The notes under the pieces: generated by a model
Told to the model about the DNA's origin: nothing
Database searches by the model: none
Seen by the model: the letters and a program-made list of their open reading frames with translations, nothing else
From: a virus
Lineage: Duplodnaviria; Caudoviricetes
Virus record (IMG/VR): IMGVR_UViG_3300032212_000101
Span: 1 to 34,437 of that record
Length of the DNA stretch: 34,437 bases
Reading direction: 5' to 3' (one strand)
Shown: positions 3,269 to 33,750 of the stretch, in pieces
Position numbering within the stretch: position 1 is the first letter of the stretch
How the letters are laid out: every line of letters begins with the position of its first letter
Made by a program: the position numbers and the translations under genes

Positions 3269-3331
3269 TAAGTTTTATTAATAGCTAATAAAATATTTTG
3301 ATTTCACAAAGACCGATTATTAAACGAGAAT
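3268..3331 (+). promoter_or_regulatory. Sigma70-like promoter with tandem ATAA-N7-nnAT boxes (copy 1)
   Basis: ATAAgttttatTAAT-N5-ATAAaatatttTGAT, then TTCACA (3303-3308), 17 bp, GAGAAT (3326-3331). Confidence 0.65.
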
Positions 3332-14600: not shown

Positions 14601-14612
14601 TTTTTCACCTTT

Positions 14613-14628
14613 GCTGTCTCACGACAGT
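14613..14628 (-). repeat. Late-gene leader hairpin ACTGTC-GTGA-GACAGC (copy before the gp7-like gene)
   Basis: Identical to 18820-18835; GNRA-type loop. Confidence 0.75.
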
Positions 14629-14660
14629 TTCAATAATTATAACTTATATTAAGATAAATT

Positions 14661-18791: not shown

Positions 18792-18835
18792 TTGTCTCCC
18801 GACAATTAAAGGGGTTCATGCTGTCTCACGACAGT
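18792..18835 (-). repeat. Two leader hairpins (TGTC-GKGA-GACA) before the capsid gene
   Basis: Copies at 18820-18835 and 18792-18805; the second contains the GGAG RBS. Confidence 0.75.
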
Positions 18836-18836
18836 A

Positions 18837-19583
18837 TTAATTCCCATAAAGTTTATTCGCTGGCATCGGCCCGGCCCACTTGGTGGAGCCTGTTCCCGCT
18901 GCCGCCGTTGCTGTTGAGAGAGTACCCGGAATTGATTTAGTTATAGCTTCCTCAGTTTGCGCTTTTAATTTATCAGCCATCTCAGCTTCAACCTTGGCGC
19001 GTACTTCTGCCTCGATTTTCGACTTAAGATCATCAACAGAATTAACACCTTTAAACTCGCTGTGAGTCTTAGCCTGTTGATAAATAAACTCGTAAGGATG
19101 CTGTTGCTGTAAAGCCTGCTGCTGTAACAAGGGATTTGAACTGACCATTTCATTGAAAAATACATCAACCATTTGATCAAAATCCTCGCCATGCTGCTGC
19201 CTAGCCATCATTTCTGACATATCGTAAAAACGATTATCCATCTGTGATTGCAACTGCTGAGCCGTAAAAGCTATTGCCTTGTCTGGTTCAACATAAGCAT
19301 CTGGCGTTTCCGCTTGTTGCTGCTGGGCTTGCTCTAAAGCTTGCCTTTTCCTTACTTCGTCTAGTGCTTTTGCCTTAAATGCACTTACTTCGGACCGTAA
19401 CTTTTCAATCTCAGTCTTTGTATCATACGCTTCACTCGTTTCAGCCGTAGGCGCTGCTTGCTCGGTTTCTACCTCCTGATTCTCATCGGTGGCTTTCACT
19501 TCGCTTGTATCTACCGTGGACTCTTCAACAACAGGTTCAACCGCCGCTGGTTCATCCCCAACATCATAAATCGAATCACTCAT
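18837..19583 (-). CDS. Scaffolding protein
   Basis: Acidic N-terminus and coiled coil; between portal and capsid; AGGAG RBS. Confidence 0.8.
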   Translation of the reverse strand: MSDSIYDVGDEPAAVEPVVEESTVDTSEVKATDENQEVETEQAAPTAETSEAYDTKTEIEKLRSEVSAFKAKALDEVRKRQALEQAQQQQAETPDAYVEPDKAIAFTAQQLQSQMDNRFYDMSEMMARQQHGEDFDQMVDVFFNEMVSSNPLLQQQALQQQHPYEFIYQQAKTHSEFKGVNSVDDLKSKIEAEVRAKVEAEMADKLKAQTEEAITKSIPGTLSTATAAAGTGSTKWAGPMPANKLYGN

Positions 19584-21598: not shown

Positions 21599-21603
21599 GT
21601 CTT

Positions 21604-21619
21604 GCTATCTCCCGACAGT
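21604..21619 (-). repeat. Leader hairpin ACTGTC-GGGA-GATAGC before the portal gene
   Basis: Variant of the same motif; overlaps the RBS. Confidence 0.7.
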
Positions 21620-21670
21620 ATAATGTAGATTTTATGCCATTAATTGATTGTAGTCTATGATAAGTCATAT

Positions 21671-26146: not shown

Positions 26147-26208
26147 AGCTAACAAATAAATTAAGCGCGATAACATAAAGCGTTGCGCCTTATTAAGTGT
26201 CGTTATTA
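26147..26208 (+). other. Integron attC site (62 bp)
   Basis: R'' AGCTAAC ... AATTAAGCGCGATAAC / GTTGCGCCTTATT ... R' GTTATTA. Imperfect palindrome with two extra top-strand bases; the right spacer is slightly long. Confidence 0.7.
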
Positions 26209-26735
26209 ATCAGTCTTTCTAGTCGTCTTCTATATTCAGGGTATGTCTCGCCTCTGCTTGGCTGCGGTAGATCATTATCCTTTGCAAACCCTTCAAGCTT
26301 TTCATTGTCTCTTGGTAATGTAAGCCTTGTTGCCTGCTCTGGTATCTTCCAAGCCTCTAAATACAGCTCGTTTTTAATAAAATTACTTAATTTATATACA
26401 AATTCGCTCTTTGTTGCCTTGATATAAGCAGAATATCGCTCTGTTCCTGCCTGTATGACGCTGTGAGGCACTTTTTTGTTAATCTTTGCTAAGTACTCCT
26501 TATAAGCTAGTGGCTTCGAGTTGCCTTCTCTGTGTGGCTTTAATTTATACAGTGTTTCAAATTCTGGTGAATATTCGTGCTGCTTTCTAGGCCGTGACTG
26601 CTTGGCCTTCTTAGTCACAACATAATCAAACTGGCCGTGTATAATCTCGCCGCTTTCCGTGGTCTGCTGGATGGTTTCTATTTCACAGCCTACGCCTTCA
26701 ATAAAAGCGCGTAAAAGCCTTATTTCGTTGGTCAT
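26193..26735 (-). CDS. Replication-protein-like gene (C-terminal domain of lambdoid initiators, no N-terminal HTH)
   Basis: YSPEFE..Y...P.REGNSK..AYK.Y.A......GTERY.AY.......FV.....F motif; C-terminal GETYPEYRRRL. Confidence 0.6.
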   Translation of the reverse strand: MTNEIRLLRAFIEGVGCEIETIQQTTESGEIIHGQFDYVVTKKAKQSRPRKQHEYSPEFETLYKLKPHREGNSKPLAYKEYLAKINKKVPHSVIQAGTERYSAYIKATKSEFVYKLSNFIKNELYLEAWKIPEQATRLTLPRDNEKLEGFAKDNDLPQPSRGETYPEYRRRLERLINNDT

Positions 26736-26738
26736 TGG

Positions 26739-27944
26739 CTATGCCGCTTCGCTTCTTCTCTTCTGCTGTATTGCTTTAAACTTGCCGTAAGCCTCTGATT
26801 TGGGCTGAGTCTGCCCAAGACCTTTGCAGTAGTAATCATTTCTCAATATACACCTGCACATTCTTCTCCATGAAGGCGCCCATTGTTTTACCTCAAGATC
26901 GTGCGGAGCAAGATCAGGAATTGTTTTATATCCTCTTTTCTTCCAGCATGAAATAAACTTTGTGAATCTATCTTTGTAATTATCCTGCATCGGCTTTGGT
27001 AGGCTCTTTAACAGAAAATTAGTGTATTCTTGCCAATTGTATTTATCTGGCTTTGATATTTTGTTATTCCCATTAATATTCCCGCTTTCTTGAGAATACA
27101 AGGCGCCAGAATTAACACCGCTTACCCGATTCAATAACTTGTACCATGTATCAGGTTCGAGCAACTGATAAAGCCATAGTCCTTTCTTTTGATCATCACC
27201 AAAAGGCTGGCATAGCCTCTGGTTACTAAATTTAACGCCTGCTCTTGTCATAAGGTCGTATATTTTATTGTAGCCCAACTCCTCGCTTTTTGCGTGATAC
27301 AGCCATATATCCTCAGTTCTCCAATCATATATCGGATACACGTTATAAACATTCTTGTCTATTTTTGTTGTCCATTTCTTCTTATTAGCCATAAGTCCTG
27401 TCTTTTTAGACACAATAGCTCTGTATCTGTGCAAGCTTTCATCAGATCGAATACCTATTAACGCGCCACAAGTTTTTCCTTTTGAATACCACTTACCAAA
27501 AATAACCATCAACTCTTCAAACTCCATTCTTGGGTGATAAAAATCATATTGACTTAAATCAGAGGCCAAAGCAGGCTTTTCCCTTACCCATAAATCCTTT
27601 TTTGACTCATCCCAGCAAACCCATTTAGGCTCATAATCAGAAACTGCATTTCTAAGCAATAGCTCACCACAAAACCAATGAAGATCAATACAATCAGAAT
27701 ATTCATCAACCATATAATTTACATGACTTATTGTTGCCGTATATTGAGCTTCAAGATCAATAACTAAAATACCAACTTTTCGTCCTCTACGCCTAGCCTC
27801 TTGACATACCAAGTGCATTAAAACAGTAGAATCTTTACCACCTGAAAAACTTATATAAAGCCTTTCAAACATATCAAATGACTCGGAAACCCTTCTATTT
27901 GACGCATCTAAAACACTATGTTTCTGATATACCTTATGACTCAT
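26739..27944 (-). CDS. ibrA: PAPS-reductase-domain / DUF3440 protein (IbrA/YbdN-like)
   Basis: PP-loop SFSGGKDS, IDLEAQY..T, GIRSDESLHRY, YPIYDW.TEDIW, QRLCQPFG and PSWRRMCRCILRNDYYC. Confidence 0.85.
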   Translation of the reverse strand: MSHKVYQKHSVLDASNRRVSESFDMFERLYISFSGGKDSTVLMHLVCQEARRRGRKVGILVIDLEAQYTATISHVNYMVDEYSDCIDLHWFCGELLLRNAVSDYEPKWVCWDESKKDLWVREKPALASDLSQYDFYHPRMEFEELMVIFGKWYSKGKTCGALIGIRSDESLHRYRAIVSKKTGLMANKKKWTTKIDKNVYNVYPIYDWRTEDIWLYHAKSEELGYNKIYDLMTRAGVKFSNQRLCQPFGDDQKKGLWLYQLLEPDTWYKLLNRVSGVNSGALYSQESGNINGNNKISKPDKYNWQEYTNFLLKSLPKPMQDNYKDRFTKFISCWKKRGYKTIPDLAPHDLEVKQWAPSWRRMCRCILRNDYYCKGLGQTQPKSEAYGKFKAIQQKRRSEAA

Positions 27945-29078
27945 TTAATAAATCTCCACTTGACGACCAGAGCTTGTTGCCTCAACCATATCTACAGGGT
28001 CTCTTCCATTCTGCAAAAGCCAGTCATTCAAAACATCTAACGCTACTTCGTTTGCTTCTTCTTTTTGATCATCTGTTAACAAGTTAAATCCAGCGCAAAA
28101 TTTAGATGGAATACCCGTTTCATAACACATCGCTGCTTGACCAATCCAAGCTATTCTATTCATAGCGAAATTAGTTAAATAATGCTCACACGAATTATTC
28201 CATTCGTTTATTACAGAGTTGGCCGCTTTTCTGAACCTGTTAGAATCAGATAAAAAGTCTCTATATGCGTTCTCGCATTCATCTTTTGTCATTCCGTCTA
28301 CTTTGCTCGCATAAAATCCAGATTTTTGGCATTCCCATTTATCAAAAGTATGAAATATTCTATCTCCCTTACCTTCGTTTGGAATTCTTGCCTTACTTAT
28401 TTCGTCATCACTAATATTATCAGTTAGATCATCCCAAGACTCTGTTGAATCGTCAGCTTCCCATGCCCTGCTAAAGTCATTGTCACTAAATAAATTCTCC
28501 ATTCCTGATATTTGGCATAGCCTTAAAACCTCTTCCTCGTCCATACCAAGCTCTTTTGCTATTCGCGCATTTCGCCAATTTCTATTCTTTAGCTCAATAA
28601 CAATTTCACTCATTGCGTCAATTTGGTGCTTTCCTCTTGCCCTGTTATGCCTGATTGTTGATGCAATTCTATCGTTTTTGCTAGTTTGCTCATTTCTAAC
28701 AGACACTATTGGCAGATAACCATTTACGCGCTCTTTAACAGATTTAGACTCTTTTCCAACTCTAGAACGATGAAAACCGTCAATAACCTCTATCTTGTCA
28801 TCATTAGGCCAAGTAACAATTGGCTGAGTATAACCATCATTCATAATGGATATTTCCAATAGTTCCATCTCAGGTGGCGCAACTTTGTTTGGATTATAGT
28901 CATTCGCCTGCACCGAATCATTTTTCACCCACAAAACACAATCAACCGGCTCACTTGAAAATGGACTAATCTCATGCAATGCTAATTTTAGTTTATTAAT
29001 AGCATCTACTTTTGCATCAATATCAAGCAAATTAATATTTCTTGTTATCGAATCTATTTCTGTATCTAAAGACATCAT
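27945..29078 (-). CDS. ibrB: ParB/sulfiredoxin-domain protein (IbrB/YbdM-like) fused to an extra C-terminal domain
   Basis: EPVDCVLWV, ANDYNPNKVAPPEM.LL..SI..DGYTQPIV, IDGFHR and STIRHNRARGKH, plus about 140 extra residues. Confidence 0.85.
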   Translation of the reverse strand: MMSLDTEIDSITRNINLLDIDAKVDAINKLKLALHEISPFSSEPVDCVLWVKNDSVQANDYNPNKVAPPEMELLEISIMNDGYTQPIVTWPNDDKIEVIDGFHRSRVGKESKSVKERVNGYLPIVSVRNEQTSKNDRIASTIRHNRARGKHQIDAMSEIVIELKNRNWRNARIAKELGMDEEEVLRLCQISGMENLFSDNDFSRAWEADDSTESWDDLTDNISDDEISKARIPNEGKGDRIFHTFDKWECQKSGFYASKVDGMTKDECENAYRDFLSDSNRFRKAANSVINEWNNSCEHYLTNFAMNRIAWIGQAAMCYETGIPSKFCAGFNLLTDDQKEEANEVALDVLNDWLLQNGRDPVDMVEATSSGRQVEIY

Positions 29079-29096: not shown

Positions 29097-29765
29097 CTAA
29101 ACAGGCTTAATATCTTTCAATGCTTCTTCAATATCACTGGCTAAATAATCTTTACCACCGATATTTACTGTAGGCTCATTCTTTGCTTCTACATCTATTC
29201 CTGAAATCTCTTTAAAAATAGCCGCGTCGAAGTTTGGAAGATCAAATAATTTAGCCCTATCCTCTTCACTTGCATTATCCCATGATCGCTTCCATGCTTC
29301 GTGGTAATCGTAAGACTTCAAATAACCGTCTACCACTTCCCATTTTGGATTGTCTTCTTTTTCCTTATCCGTCATATCGCATCCATAAATCCATTCTTTA
29401 GTCTCAAAATAAAAGAAATCCGGAAATGATATATCATTAAATTTAACACCTGAATCTTTATTAAATATTCTTACTGTTGGCTCGGTAGTGTTCAGGTAGC
29501 CTGTGTTCCGATTTCCTACGTTCCAATTTCCTGCGTTCCAATCGCCTGTGTTCCGATTTCCTACGTTCCAATTTCCTACGTTCCAATTTCCTGTGTTCCG
29601 ATTTCCTACGTTCCAATCGCCTGTGTTCAGGTAGCCTGTGTTCCGATTTCCTACGTTCCAATCGCCTGTGTTCCGATTTCCTACGTTCCAATTTCCTGCG
29701 TTCCAATCGCCTGCGTTCCGATTTCCTGTGTTCCAATTTCCTGTGTTATTCTTTGAATCACTCAT
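29097..29765 (-). CDS. Phage N-x-G-x-x pentapeptide-repeat protein
   Basis: 17 NTGNW-type units, then a conserved FNK...GYLK...Y.EAW...W...LPNFD..IF.EI.GI tail. Confidence 0.85.
   Translation of the reverse strand: MSDSKNNTGNWNTGNRNAGDWNAGNWNVGNRNTGDWNVGNRNTGYLNTGDWNVGNRNTGNWNVGNWNVGNRNTGDWNAGNWNVGNRNTGYLNTTEPTVRIFNKDSGVKFNDISFPDFFYFETKEWIYGCDMTDKEKEDNPKWEVVDGYLKSYDYHEAWKRSWDNASEEDRAKLFDLPNFDAAIFKEISGIDVEAKNEPTVNIGGKDYLASDIEEALKDIKPV
29493..29747 (-). repeat. 17 tandem 15-bp coding repeats
   Basis: Units such as GTTCCAATTTCCTGT, GTTCCGATTTCCTAC and GTTCCAATCGCCTGT on the plus strand. Confidence 0.9.
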
Positions 29766-31800: not shown

Positions 31801-32060
31801 TTCTGTTCCTTTCTGAATTTGTCGTGAATAGAGATCAATTCATCTTCTATCTTGTGAATAGCCTCTACTGGCTCATCAGCATCAGCATAAGTATAAAATT
31901 CGTGACTATAGTTTTTACCATTCCAGCCGTTTAAACATATATCAATGCCGATCTTTTCAACATGGCCGCTATAGTGTAAAAATACGTGAAAATCATCTGC
32001 GTTAAGGTTTGCGACTGTCTCCATCAATCCAGCCATCGCTCGTTGTGTTCTAATGTCCAT
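31797..32060 (-). CDS. Hypothetical phage protein, first gene of the leftward early operon
   Basis: GGAG RBS; YSGHV..I.I motif. Confidence 0.75.
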   Translation of the reverse strand: MDIRTQRAMAGLMETVANLNADDFHVFLHYSGHVEKIGIDICLNGWNGKNYSHEFYTYADADEPVEAIHKIEDELISIHDKFRKEQK

Positions 32061-32085
32061 CTCTCTCTCCGTTGTGTATGGTGTA

Positions 32086-32148
32086 AATATAGCGGAATGA
32101 CAGAATTATGGTAATGAAAAGATTTTATAGCGTATAAGTAGGATTTAT
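32086..32148 (-). promoter_or_regulatory. Leftward early promoter with tandem ATAA-N7-nnAT boxes (copy 4)
   Basis: Minus strand ATAAatcctacTTAT-N5-ATAAaatctttTCAT, then TTACCA-17-TATATT. Confidence 0.65.
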
Positions 32149-32151
32149 AGC

Positions 32152-32181
32152 AAAAGAAAACCCGCCAGAAGGTAGCGGGTT
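32152..32181 (-). terminator. Intrinsic terminator of a short leftward transcript
   Basis: Minus strand AACCCGC-taccttctg-GCGGGTT followed by TTCTTTT. Confidence 0.75.
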
Positions 32182-32322
32182 AATAACAACATAGAGAGGT
32201 TTAGTATAACTTACTTTGTGCCTTTTTATCATCTGTAGGCCGTAACAGGATTTGCCGAACTCTTTCGAGCCAGCGCCCAAATGCAGAACAAATGGGTAAG
32301 CGCGATACTTGATTGTATAGCT
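32152..32322 (-). ncRNA. Candidate ~170-nt small RNA
   Basis: Extended -10 TGGTATAAT (32337-32329), internal GAAA-tetraloop hairpin (32254-32274), terminator; no credible ORF. Confidence 0.5.
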
Positions 32323-32352
32323 GTGTTTATTATACCAGAAAAGAAAAAAGAC

Positions 32353-32381
32353 TTGCTAAGTTAATAACAAATCTTTATTCT
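32353..32381 (+). promoter_or_regulatory. Rightward sigma70-like promoter
   Basis: TTGCTA (32353-32358), 17 bp, TATTCT (32376-32381). Confidence 0.6.
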
Positions 32382-32387
32382 TTATGA

Positions 32388-32652
32388 ATCTGTAACGTGT
32401 TTGGCGACACTTGCAGGAATCAGTAGAACGATTACGTAACTCTTGCTTCAACAGATTTTCAGTGATTATACCTACCTTTCCTAGCATTTAAAACCGTTTT
32501 CAGACCTTGTTATATGTCCCGCTGAGAGTCTGGGAGCAGTGAACCAGATTAAAGGCTTTGAGCCTCGATATAAGATAATGCACCGGCGGGTGGTAGTGGT
32601 TCAGGCCACGATACAACAAAATTACCGCGACAATAGCATATAACAAGCCTGA
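32388..32652 (+). ncRNA. Long structured non-coding leader/RNA
   Basis: 5' hairpin at 32390-32416; multibranch domain closed by CTTGTTATATG 32506-32516 / CATATAACAAG 32637-32647. Confidence 0.6.
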
Positions 32653-32670
32653 TATAGCATGACTATGGAC

Positions 32671-32690
32671 TTATCCACAGGTTATCCACA
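32671..32690 (+). promoter_or_regulatory. Two tandem perfect DnaA boxes; candidate replication origin
   Basis: TTATCCACA at 32671-32679 and 32682-32690 (11-bp period), followed by a T-rich tract at about 32726-32752. Confidence 0.75.
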
Positions 32691-32781
32691 GTCCCTATAA
32701 AAAGATTAACCGTACTTGACCGGTGTTTCTTTTCGTCTTTAATTTTTATTTAGATCAAAAGCGTTAAGCAAAGGATATATT

Positions 32782-33192
32782 ATGAAAAAGAAGTTTTATG
32801 CAATTAAGAAAGGCTTTAAATGTGGTGTTATTGTTAAATCATGGAGTGAGTGCGAATCATTAGTAAATGGTTATAAAAGCGCAGTATTTAAGGGTTTCCC
32901 TGACCATGAATCTGCTAAAAAGTGGCTTGGAAAACCTGAACCAGTAGAGCAAAAACAGATTATTCAGAAAGATGGAACTATATTTTTGCCAGCTACAAAC
33001 AAAAAGAATAAATACGGATATTACAAAGAGCGATATTACACAGTAAAAGGCCAGTTATTAGCGCATCATGGAACTACTATAGGGTGTAACTGTGATGTAA
33101 ATAACCTTTATTCTGGATTCGAGCCGCCGTGGGATTTATTGCCAATTAATGAAGCGCTAGATTTACAGCTATTAAGCTCATCACCGTTATAA
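32782..33192 (+). CDS. RNase H1 N-terminal hybrid-binding (Cauli_VI/viroplasmin) domain protein with no RNase H catalytic domain
   Basis: KFYAIKKG...GV...SW.EC...V.GYKSA.FKGF.....A..WL; AAGGA RBS. Confidence 0.8.
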   Translation: MKKKFYAIKKGFKCGVIVKSWSECESLVNGYKSAVFKGFPDHESAKKWLGKPEPVEQKQIIQKDGTIFLPATNKKNKYGYYKERYYTVKGQLLAHHGTTIGCNCDVNNLYSGFEPPWDLLPINEALDLQLLSSSPL

Positions 33193-33252
33193 ACAAAACT
33201 AATAACCTATAAAAAACTTTGATTTCACATACTGAGATAATAATAAGATACT
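33189..33252 (+). promoter_or_regulatory. Sigma70-like promoter with tandem ATAA-N7-nnAT boxes (copy 2)
   Basis: ATAAacaaaacTAAT-N5-ATAAaaaacttTGAT, then TTCACA (33224-33229), 17 bp, GATACT. Confidence 0.65.
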
Positions 33253-33279
33253 GACTGAAAGTTAATTGGAGAGAGATAG

Positions 33280-33489
33280 ATGAACAGGAAAAGAGTAAGA
33301 ACTATATTAAGGGAAGCTTTTGGTGATTACTGCTACTGGTGTGGGTTAAAAATGGATTTCCCTAGATATGGCGAGATTGATCCATATCATAAAAACATGG
33401 CGACTATAGAACATCACATCGCAAAGAAAAAGAACAAAGGAAATGAAATTTATTACCTAAGGCTCGCACATAAAAAGTGCAATATTTAA
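33280..33489 (+). CDS. Small HNH endonuclease-like protein
   Basis: CYWCG...ATIEH.I.K...G.....LRLAHKKCN. Confidence 0.75.
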   Translation: MNRKRVRTILREAFGDYCYWCGLKMDFPRYGEIDPYHKNMATIEHHIAKKKNKGNEIYYLRLAHKKCNI

Positions 33490-33498
33490 GGACTAACC

Positions 33499-33750
33499 AT
33501 GAAAGATGATATGCCAGATAAGATTTATGCAAAGGTAGACGTTTTCGCAACCGATAGAGTGAAATTTGGCCAGTGGGGAACAGGTCAAAAAGACAATACC
33601 GAATACCTAAAACGCTCTCATGCGAATGAGCTGGTTAAGGAGGCTGTTGAGAAATCATTTCATTCAATTATGAATGAACTTGATTATGATGAAGAGCTTT
33701 ATGACAGATTACATACAGCAGCATTAAACCCCACAACCGAGGACAAGTGA
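33499..33750 (+). CDS. Hypothetical phage protein
   Basis: AAGGA RBS; MPDKIY...EY.R motif. Confidence 0.7.
   Translation: MKDDMPDKIYAKVDVFATDRVKFGQWGTGQKDNTEYLKRSHANELVKEAVEKSFHSIMNELDYDEELYDRLHTAALNPTTEDK

Follow-up and report, generated by a model that had tools for sequence, protein, structure and literature searches.

Many small tailed phages carry no recognisable initiator, helicase or primase, which leaves the start of their replication to be explained; the phage analysed here is of this kind. The window, i.e. the whole stretch of DNA under analysis, is an entire virus record of 34,437 bases that was sequenced from a microbial-mat run. Its portal, capsid and terminase are P22-like in PHROG/Pfam profile searches, and its last ORF ends on a stop made by the record's first bases, overlapping the next start, so that the window fits a complete circle; a terminal repeat was looked for in the window and not found. 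In line with what a first-pass annotation of the same DNA had stated, no polymerase, primase or helicase was matched among the 62 ORFs, and neither was an integrase, 40 of the 62 being without any PHROG match. A complete initiator is likewise absent, as claimed there: the product of 26193-26735 resembles lambda-O-type initiators in their C-terminal part only (matches that are also annotated as primosomal protein I), i.e. a DNA-binding initiator encoded by the element was not found, yet this O-C-terminal protein is encoded. With no DNA-binding initiator, helicase, primase or polymerase among the ORFs, it seems that host enzymes must open the origin.

The locus of interest is a control region of 720 bp, the gap that separates the divergent early gene blocks, from which the sense direction leads into an early operon that includes RecT. 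Here an RNA-primed, ColE1-like origin had been proposed, consisting of a promoter, a folded leader, two DnaA boxes and the gene of a hybrid-binding protein (Table 1). The leader is indeed free of ORFs (no plus-strand ORF of at least 35 aa in 32388-32781). The best-supported part of the locus is one that the proposal missed, namely a conserved element (element A) with convergent promoter-like sites in two phages. Following these results, an antisense switch may well gate RNA priming of replication beside the DnaA box pair, a reading to which we give a probability of roughly 45%. A check by GC skew, as had been suggested, does not bear on it: the GC and AT skew minima of the window (32070-32084) coincide with the gene strand switch and fourfold sites are silent, i.e. 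they give no replication signal independent of gene direction, and the skew is therefore no evidence for an origin.

Table 1. Positions of the predicted features in the window (RNA features are predictions)
Feature	Position	Strand	Remarks
Stand-alone C-terminal part of a lambda-O-type (DnaT-like) initiator	26193..26735	-	without N-terminal DNA-binding domain
Terminator-like hairpin (intrinsic), further left of the module	32159..32181	-	
Possible second, upstream promoter	32197..32213	+	exact 17-nt match to the G018 sense promoter at its -10 region
Predicted antisense small RNA, RNA I-like, ~120 nt	32340..32459	-	element A plus terminator; z -4.94
Terminator-like hairpin of the antisense RNA, over the sense promoter	32340..32383	-	12-bp core with two G-U pairs, then U-run
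Sense promoter-like site, TTGCTA-17-TATTCT	32353..32381	+	predicted start ~32388
Element A, overlap of the two predicted RNAs	32388..32458		common to G018, 58/71 identical, E 8e-12
Predicted rod, long irregular hairpin, first ~115 nt of the sense RNA	32388..32504	+	separate folds of both phages
Segment alpha, mostly antisense-covered, partner of beta	32441..32464	+	duplex prediction
Antisense promoter-like site, TTTAAA-16-TATAAT	32465..32492	-	predicted start ~32458
Domain B, multibranch fold of the earlier annotation	32506..32647	+	MFE and centroid of 32500-32655
Segment beta, 5' arm and loop of domain B; pairs with alpha or within domain B	32520..32542	+	duplex prediction
G-rich tract; domain B pairs it, the alpha-beta state leaves it partly free	32585..32600	+	unpaired probabilities
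Two perfect tandem DnaA boxes, 2-nt spacer, flanks GGAC/GTCC	32667..32694	+	boxes 32671-79 and 32682-90
T/A-rich tract with weak promoter-like site TTGACC-16-TTTAAT (32716-32743)	32716..32781	+	GC 0.23 in 32740-32779
RNase H1 hybrid-binding domain (HBD) gene	32782..33192	+	HBD residues 4-48, small conserved basic beta-rich domain, PPW-type end

Element A is shared with a contig from the same run that is ~30-fold more abundant and that belongs to G018, a complete P22-like phage of 42,115 bases whose terminase is 59% identical to that of the window. In both phages the element lies between two facing promoter-like sites. The sense site ends 6 nt before element A in the window and 5 nt before it in G018 (TTGCGT-17-TAGTAT), while the antisense sites end 6-7 nt before it on the other side (G018: TAGACT-18-TAAAAT, 7 nt). 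Since the promoter sequences differ between the two phages, it is their position that is kept. The sense promoter, already named in the earlier proposal, thus gains a counterpart at the same place in G018, but as an 8/12 match it falls under the scan threshold. The antisense site scores 10/12 and is the best, untied, among 7 sites in 32000-33400; a -10 of its quality occurs at 2-6% of positions, and one of sense quality at 6-12%. Between the possible upstream promoter and the sense promoter lie 125 nt (32214-32340) that show no significant fold; an insertion is possible, and so is a further small RNA.

On the minus strand, element A and the terminator-like hairpin together form the predicted antisense RNA, whose z-score (Table 1) was equalled by 0 of 200 shuffles, compared to a z of -2.25 for the plus strand, and none of the 440 genome tiles has a lower z than the one that overlaps this unit. 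The equivalent in G018 is a predicted small RNA of ~140 nt (z -3.27), which ends in a different hairpin with a U-run (at about 10140-10165 of L154, a stretch of G018). At the level of sequence, a candidate antisense RNA with its own promoter and terminator over the 5' end of a predicted long RNA is present in both phages, and this module of predicted sense and antisense RNAs is the firm part of the present analysis.

Element A itself is predicted to fold as a three-way junction on either strand. In its two copies 17 of the 18 pairs are invariant and none shows a compensatory change, which amounts to conservation and not to covariation. Of 13 differences between the copies, 6 sit in the 11 hairpin-loop positions (P 0.003, with the fold taken from the window alone), as expected for the specificity loops of antisense pairs (PMC3035462). 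Only two copies are known: a gapped-pattern search returned four loci among viral contigs (G018 and three chance matches) and five chance matches among prokaryote genomes, and a model of the element (R2) matched nothing beyond the two known copies across 28 sources and gave no match in 29 whole records. Rfam gave only chance-level matches in window 32000-33400 and in the G018 region, and no other target complementary to the minus-strand RNA was found in the genome or in the other loci compared.

Downstream of element A, the multibranch fold that had been described for the leader was recovered in full, with every named helix in place. This domain B reaches -49.6 kcal/mol (32500-32655, plus strand; z -3.31, 0 of 200 shuffles), compared to a z of -1.63 for the minus strand of 32500-32649. 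The score is modest, since 12 of 440 genome tiles reach z < -3 (each tile shuffled 10 times) and 5 of the 440 have a fold of equal or greater stability, and it depends on the boundaries, with out-of-register windows of 150 nt giving z -0.2 to -1.3. No homologue was found by blastn in 50,697 phage records, 72,556 plasmid records or 17 capsid-related records, nor did a single-sequence model (R1) match in 148 loci or in G018. An exact 18-nt scan for domain B returned two matches, both by chance and inside a coding region. Likenesses to hammerhead, pistol and twister ribozymes, TPP riboswitch, group I intron and retron were rejected by eye (judged against consensus features), because key residues or partner genes were missing and there was no Rfam match.

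The nascent sense RNA is predicted to have other options than domain B. Its first part would form the rod, whose core duplex prefers its own partner (-16.2 and -18.7 kcal/mol in window and G018) over the swapped one (-12.3 and -10.3 kcal/mol). The swap over the full length is mixed, the 5' part of the window giving -22.5 with the G018 partner versus -21.4 with its own; the rod of the window comes out as weak (50 of 300 shuffles) and is absent from the RNAalifold prediction on a MAFFT alignment. More pronounced is a helix of 22 bp (5 of them G-U) between two segments that we call alpha and beta, names that come from the ColE1 literature. At -27.8 kcal/mol (0 of 1000 shuffles) it is exclusive of the domain B fold. 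Although alpha was picked after the fold had been seen, beta is its best partner among 880 genome windows, its own complement aside (next, -24.1), and the pairing is strand-asymmetric, the opposite strand giving only -13.2 kcal/mol. In the folding predictions the alpha-beta helix dominates nascent RNAs that end within 32535-32612 (0.91-0.99 at seven of eight lengths tested, 0.07 at 32592), and it is lost at nascent lengths once element A is masked. For the full-length RNA the equilibrium prediction is domain B, whether or not the antisense RNA is present, which means that a switch would need a kinetic trap.

What such a switch would expose is the G-rich tract. Its presence was confirmed (10 G of 16, reached by 0.05% of genome windows). 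The ColE1 pre-primer has a long G run, whereas the longest one in the phage is only 3. The mean unpaired probability of the tract is 0.03 in the final fold, 0.35-0.37 in nascent RNAs of 213-225 nt, and 0.11-0.26 with element A blocked. No intrinsic terminator was found on the plus strand within the leader.

The two perfect DnaA boxes announced at the end of the leader are there as well; they are two of only three perfect boxes in the genome and its only pair, and by base composition a perfect pair at 2-nt spacing is expected 2e-6 times. The arrangement is not peculiar to this phage, as tandem TTATCCACA-NN-TTATCCACA occurs in ~2,500 IMG/VR stretches, mostly with GG or AG as spacer and often in longer arrays (GG being the commonest among the 124 box-pair loci that were fetched, L001-L124); a literature search returned no survey of tandem DnaA boxes in viral contigs. 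In the basal unwinding system of oriC-like origins, tandem DnaA boxes are followed by an array of DnaA-trios, and no such array (i.e. no run of at least three trios) was found in 32061-32800. The boxes stand 25 bp before the weak promoter-like site in the T/A-rich tract, and may therefore be regulatory.

The gene that follows was correctly recognised in the earlier proposal: Pfam Cauli_VI (PF01693) matches at residues 4-48 (E 2.5e-13; 50.5 bits versus a cut-off of 21), and a catalytic RNase H domain was found neither in this ORF nor in any other scanned. Members of this family also bind double-stranded RNA. The same residues match solved HBDs of RNase H1 (PDB 3bsu and 1qhk, E 1e-13 to 5e-10), with a predicted fold that superimposes at an rmsd of 0.9 A over 47 columns. 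Y6, W21, F36 and K37 coincide in the alignment with aromatic and basic residues that are conserved in the RNase H1 HBD, while G38 takes the place of the second lysine of the human FKK motif, and in place of a catalytic domain there is a domain of ~50 residues without solved match. The protein belongs to a small family of 106-139 aa (full length) that shares the second basic domain and the PPW-type end; a weak search found no longer fusion of the C-terminal domain. Viral scans for relatives with DNA context gave none with the single protein and five distant, HBD-only matches with an alignment, and a metagenome scan gave the window itself, one false match and one locus, L131. The latter, the only homologue with DNA context, has ORFs preceding the HBD gene, and no RNA model match or box pair was present in the ~1 kb upstream of it. 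The HBD protein is best read as an optional accessory, probably binding hybrids or double-stranded RNA, and not as a fixed part of the origin.

The stand-alone O-C-terminal protein has a low-confidence structure model (pLDDT 56), its complete structural look-alikes carry an extra helix-turn-helix domain, and a pattern search returned no relatives. A homologue (34% identical) is encoded by G018, where the arrangement around element A is different. There, the element with its promoter-like sites and terminator-like hairpin stands ahead of a protein-coding operon that includes the O-C-terminal gene, and an ORF of 190 aa, of no known family, starts 140 nt after the predicted sense start. G018 has no domain B, no HBD gene and no beta partner downstream of element A. 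Its four perfect DnaA boxes (L154 6723, 7237 and 8828, and G018 38287) are all single and all on one strand. The nearest, 1.2 kb downstream of element A, ends an AT-rich gap of 580 bp preceding the genes that lead to the O-C-terminal ORF; three of the boxes lie in short gaps just before ribosome-binding sites, and two have the same following bases. In neither of the two available comparisons do RNA, DnaA boxes and HBD gene form the linked set that had been assumed: fold, box pair and HBD are all missing from G018 although the switch is there, and L131 shows neither the RNA nor the boxes upstream of its HBD gene. One might speculate that what both phages have in common is a transcript under such gating that runs into an AT-rich gap bearing DnaA boxes.

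Several known systems invite comparison. In P22 sar/ant, P4 CI and P1 c4 a small RNA acts on the 5' leader of an early transcript. The present locus would resemble these in that respect, and differs in that there is no Rfam match and that no antirepressor gene or termination site was identified. In ColE1, going by the available text of PMC5043065, RNA I lies over the 5' end of RNA II and makes it fold differently, which prevents a persistent hybrid. The phage locus is similar to ColE1/pMB1, as far as these are set out in PMC5043065 and PMC3167613, in that no DNA-binding initiator was found, in a predicted long non-coding RNA whose 5' end lies under a predicted antisense RNA of ~110-120 nt that would alter its fold at nascent lengths, and in that host enzymes would do the remaining steps. 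It differs in having no Rfam match above chance and only short chance pieces as matches among 72,556 plasmid records, in the length of the RNA (~280 nt to the boxes, compared to a pre-primer given as ~550 nt in the text available), in an overlap limited to 71 nt, the antisense terminator being placed over the sense promoter, and in the tandem DnaA boxes at the RNA's end and its own HBD and O-C-terminal proteins, while R-loop and priming enter here by analogy. The ColE1-like reading of the first-pass annotation thus survives in part: it is strengthened by a predicted antisense RNA over the 5' end (kept in G018) and by a likewise predicted alternative helix that this RNA would block, whereas membership of ColE1 by sequence is lacking.

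The marine RNA-based (MRB) origins of the pB1067 type share with the phage, in the text of PMC3035462 at hand, an ORF-free region of ~500 bp, a small antisense RNA that overlies the 5' part of a longer one, and a specificity that stems from small differences in the overlap, where single changes relieve repression. Their RNA I is given there as 68 nt with two stem-loops, wholly inside RNA II, and neither DnaA boxes nor RNase H are mentioned in that text; moreover, the 54-94% identity to the pB1067 origin core by which the group is defined there has no equivalent here, as no such match exists in the 72,556 plasmid records. In its layout the locus would work like ColE1 or MRB replicons, but by sequence it belongs to neither. 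Among phages, the origin of lactococcal Ceduovirus c2 is, by the available account (PMC7150918), divergent and intergenic with a non-coding transcript (PE1) between two promoters and no need of a phage protein. An ORF-free stretch between co-directional promoter-like sites is found here too, between 32353-81 and the weak site at 32716-43. On the other hand, c2 belongs to another host and phage group, the available part of that account mentions no antisense RNA, DnaA boxes or HBD gene, and the c2, bIL67 and 923 types gave no sequence match to the window among 50,697 phage records. In T4 oriF/oriG, as far as covered by PMC3016281, a promoter is likewise followed by an AT-rich element and the transcript serves as primer, but T4 has its own replisome and a full RNase H, hybrid formation is not sequence-specific, and antisense control is not described in the part available. 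The earlier remark that no described phage replicon has a similar layout was thus too strong, considering that c2 needs a non-coding transcript (PMC7150918) and T4 oriF an R-loop (PMC3016281), on the available text of both. The novelty is thereby narrowed to the combination of antisense control, DnaA boxes and a dead HBD, for which no paper at a phage origin was found in the open-access literature (titles and abstract starts).

On the reading that we prefer, the two facing promoters would give a long sense RNA and an antisense RNA of ~120 nt. The nascent sense RNA would first form the rod; the 22-bp alpha-beta helix would follow, prevail at most lengths between ~150 and 225 nt, and keep the G-rich tract out of domain B. 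Antisense RNA bound to element A would forbid this helix, upon which domain B would bury the tract. By analogy with ColE1, the freed tract could seed an RNA:DNA hybrid, from which a primer near 32650-32700 would be generated and elongated by host RNase HI and Pol I. Loading of the host helicase would fall to DnaA of the host, bound at the box pair, to the O-C-terminal protein of the phage, or to both, with the HBD protein perhaps acting as an optional accessory on such hybrids. Evidence at the sequence level exists for element A, for the promoter-like sites and hairpins of both phages and for the alpha-beta complementarity, and likewise for the box pair, the HBD gene and the absence of an initiator domain, whereas the rod, the alpha-beta switching and the antisense effect on domain B are folding predictions only. 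In favour of an origin is that an AT-rich tract and two of the three perfect boxes come directly after the RNA. Against it speak the short distance of ~280 nt from start to boxes, the lack of a G run longer than 3, the fact that the G018 switch leads into an ORF, and the HBD gene of L131, which stands in no such neighbourhood.

The alternative that deserves most attention, and that we consider possible if less probable, is that the antisense switch controls the early operon, by attenuation that is probably Rho-dependent, with domain B as a leader structure and the boxes regulating the promoter-like site at 32716. Without any repressor protein, this would provide for timing, for a carrier state or for immunity to superinfection, which would suit two phages in which no integrase or clear CI was detected, and the divergence of the loops would equally give phage-specific immunity. 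The gene order fits, since the sense direction of the window leads into the early operon with RecT and the same switch in G018 directly precedes a protein-coding operon with the O-C-terminal gene, while single G018 boxes stand just before ribosome-binding sites. The output of such control is, however, not apparent: the sense strand has no intrinsic terminator, and the predicted accessibility of the G018 ribosome-binding site is the same with element A blocked. In addition, the HBD gene lies at a distance of 390 nt, where a separate promoter may drive it, and a Rep-less genome still needs an origin, its only box pair being here.

Two further explanations take the locus apart. The box pair and AT-rich tract could constitute a DnaA-dependent origin at the DNA level, helped by the O-C-terminal protein and activated by transcription through supercoiling or melting, the RNA not being a primer and the antisense RNA tuning transcription. 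In favour of this, perfect tandem boxes are followed by an AT-rich tract, a long G run is missing, and the box pair is widespread in phages without this RNA (model R1 of domain B had 0 matches in the 124 box-pair loci); yet with only two boxes and no DnaA-trio array, and with the 22-bp alpha-beta complementarity and domain B left unexplained, it seems distinctly unlikely. Very unlikely, in our view, is that the minus-strand RNA is a free-standing, trans-acting sRNA in a mosaic neighbourhood, with the sense promoter and domain B unrelated or due to chance. It is true that the minus-strand unit is the best-folding piece, that domain B has no homologue and that parts of the locus are found separately in G018 and L131, but the position of the sense promoter-like site is kept in both phages, the pairing on the sense strand is G-U-biased, and another complementary target was found neither in the genome nor in the other loci compared.

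The preferred reading, i.e. antisense-gated priming, can be extended to a replicon with a split initiator, which as a whole we regard as unlikely. The antisense-gated RNA would then replace the DNA-binding half of lambda O, and the dead HBD would hold or mark the R-loop and recruit host restart proteins via its acidic/aromatic PPW tail (SSB-tail-like by eye), with DnaA on the two boxes and the O C-terminal domain loading the helicase. For phages that occur together, the diverged loops would define separate copy-control or immunity groups, and the outcome would be a plasmid-like carrier state without integrase or repressor.

If the preferred reading is true, a plasmid-style RNA I/RNA II switch answers the question of replication start for a phage of this kind, in a form that is testable on a 450-bp fragment; it would assign a function to stand-alone HBD and O-C-terminal proteins, and add an orthogonal antisense pair of which two natural loop variants exist. 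If the switch controls the operon instead, it would still be an uncatalogued RNA-only regulator in two phages without detected integrase or clear repressor.

Some observations concern other parts of the two genomes. A promoter-like motif is repeated at window 33187-33250 and 3279-3327 and also occurs at L154 13108-13147 in G018, being probably a shared early promoter, and a pentapeptide-repeat protein (window 29097-29765, L154 12167-12832) is 75% identical between the phages, far above their structural genes. At window 26739-29078 a PAPS-reductase-like (DUF3440) gene adjoins a ParB-like gene, a couple that we take to be an IbrA/IbrB-type pair, possibly involved in DNA modification. In the late operon a palindromic repeat of 22 nt marks three gene boundaries (14609-14630, 18816-18837 and 21600-21621) and may be a processing or regulatory site. 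At window 33530-33733 a minor contig (depth 3.9) has 190 other bases instead of 202, which we read as a gene cassette that is exchangeable among strains. On the minus strand of G018, at about L154 2510-2640, a tRNA-like element can be made out by eye, with an acceptor-like stem, D-like and T-like arms, a 3' CCA and ~70 nt replacing the anticodon arm; ARAGORN and Rfam returned nothing for this stretch. Finally, at L154 9114-9163 of G018 the contigs of the run branch at a stretch of ~30 nt that is also present in two low-depth contigs, and which may represent a repeat or a site of recombination, or else a CRISPR protospacer from which the host might be traced.
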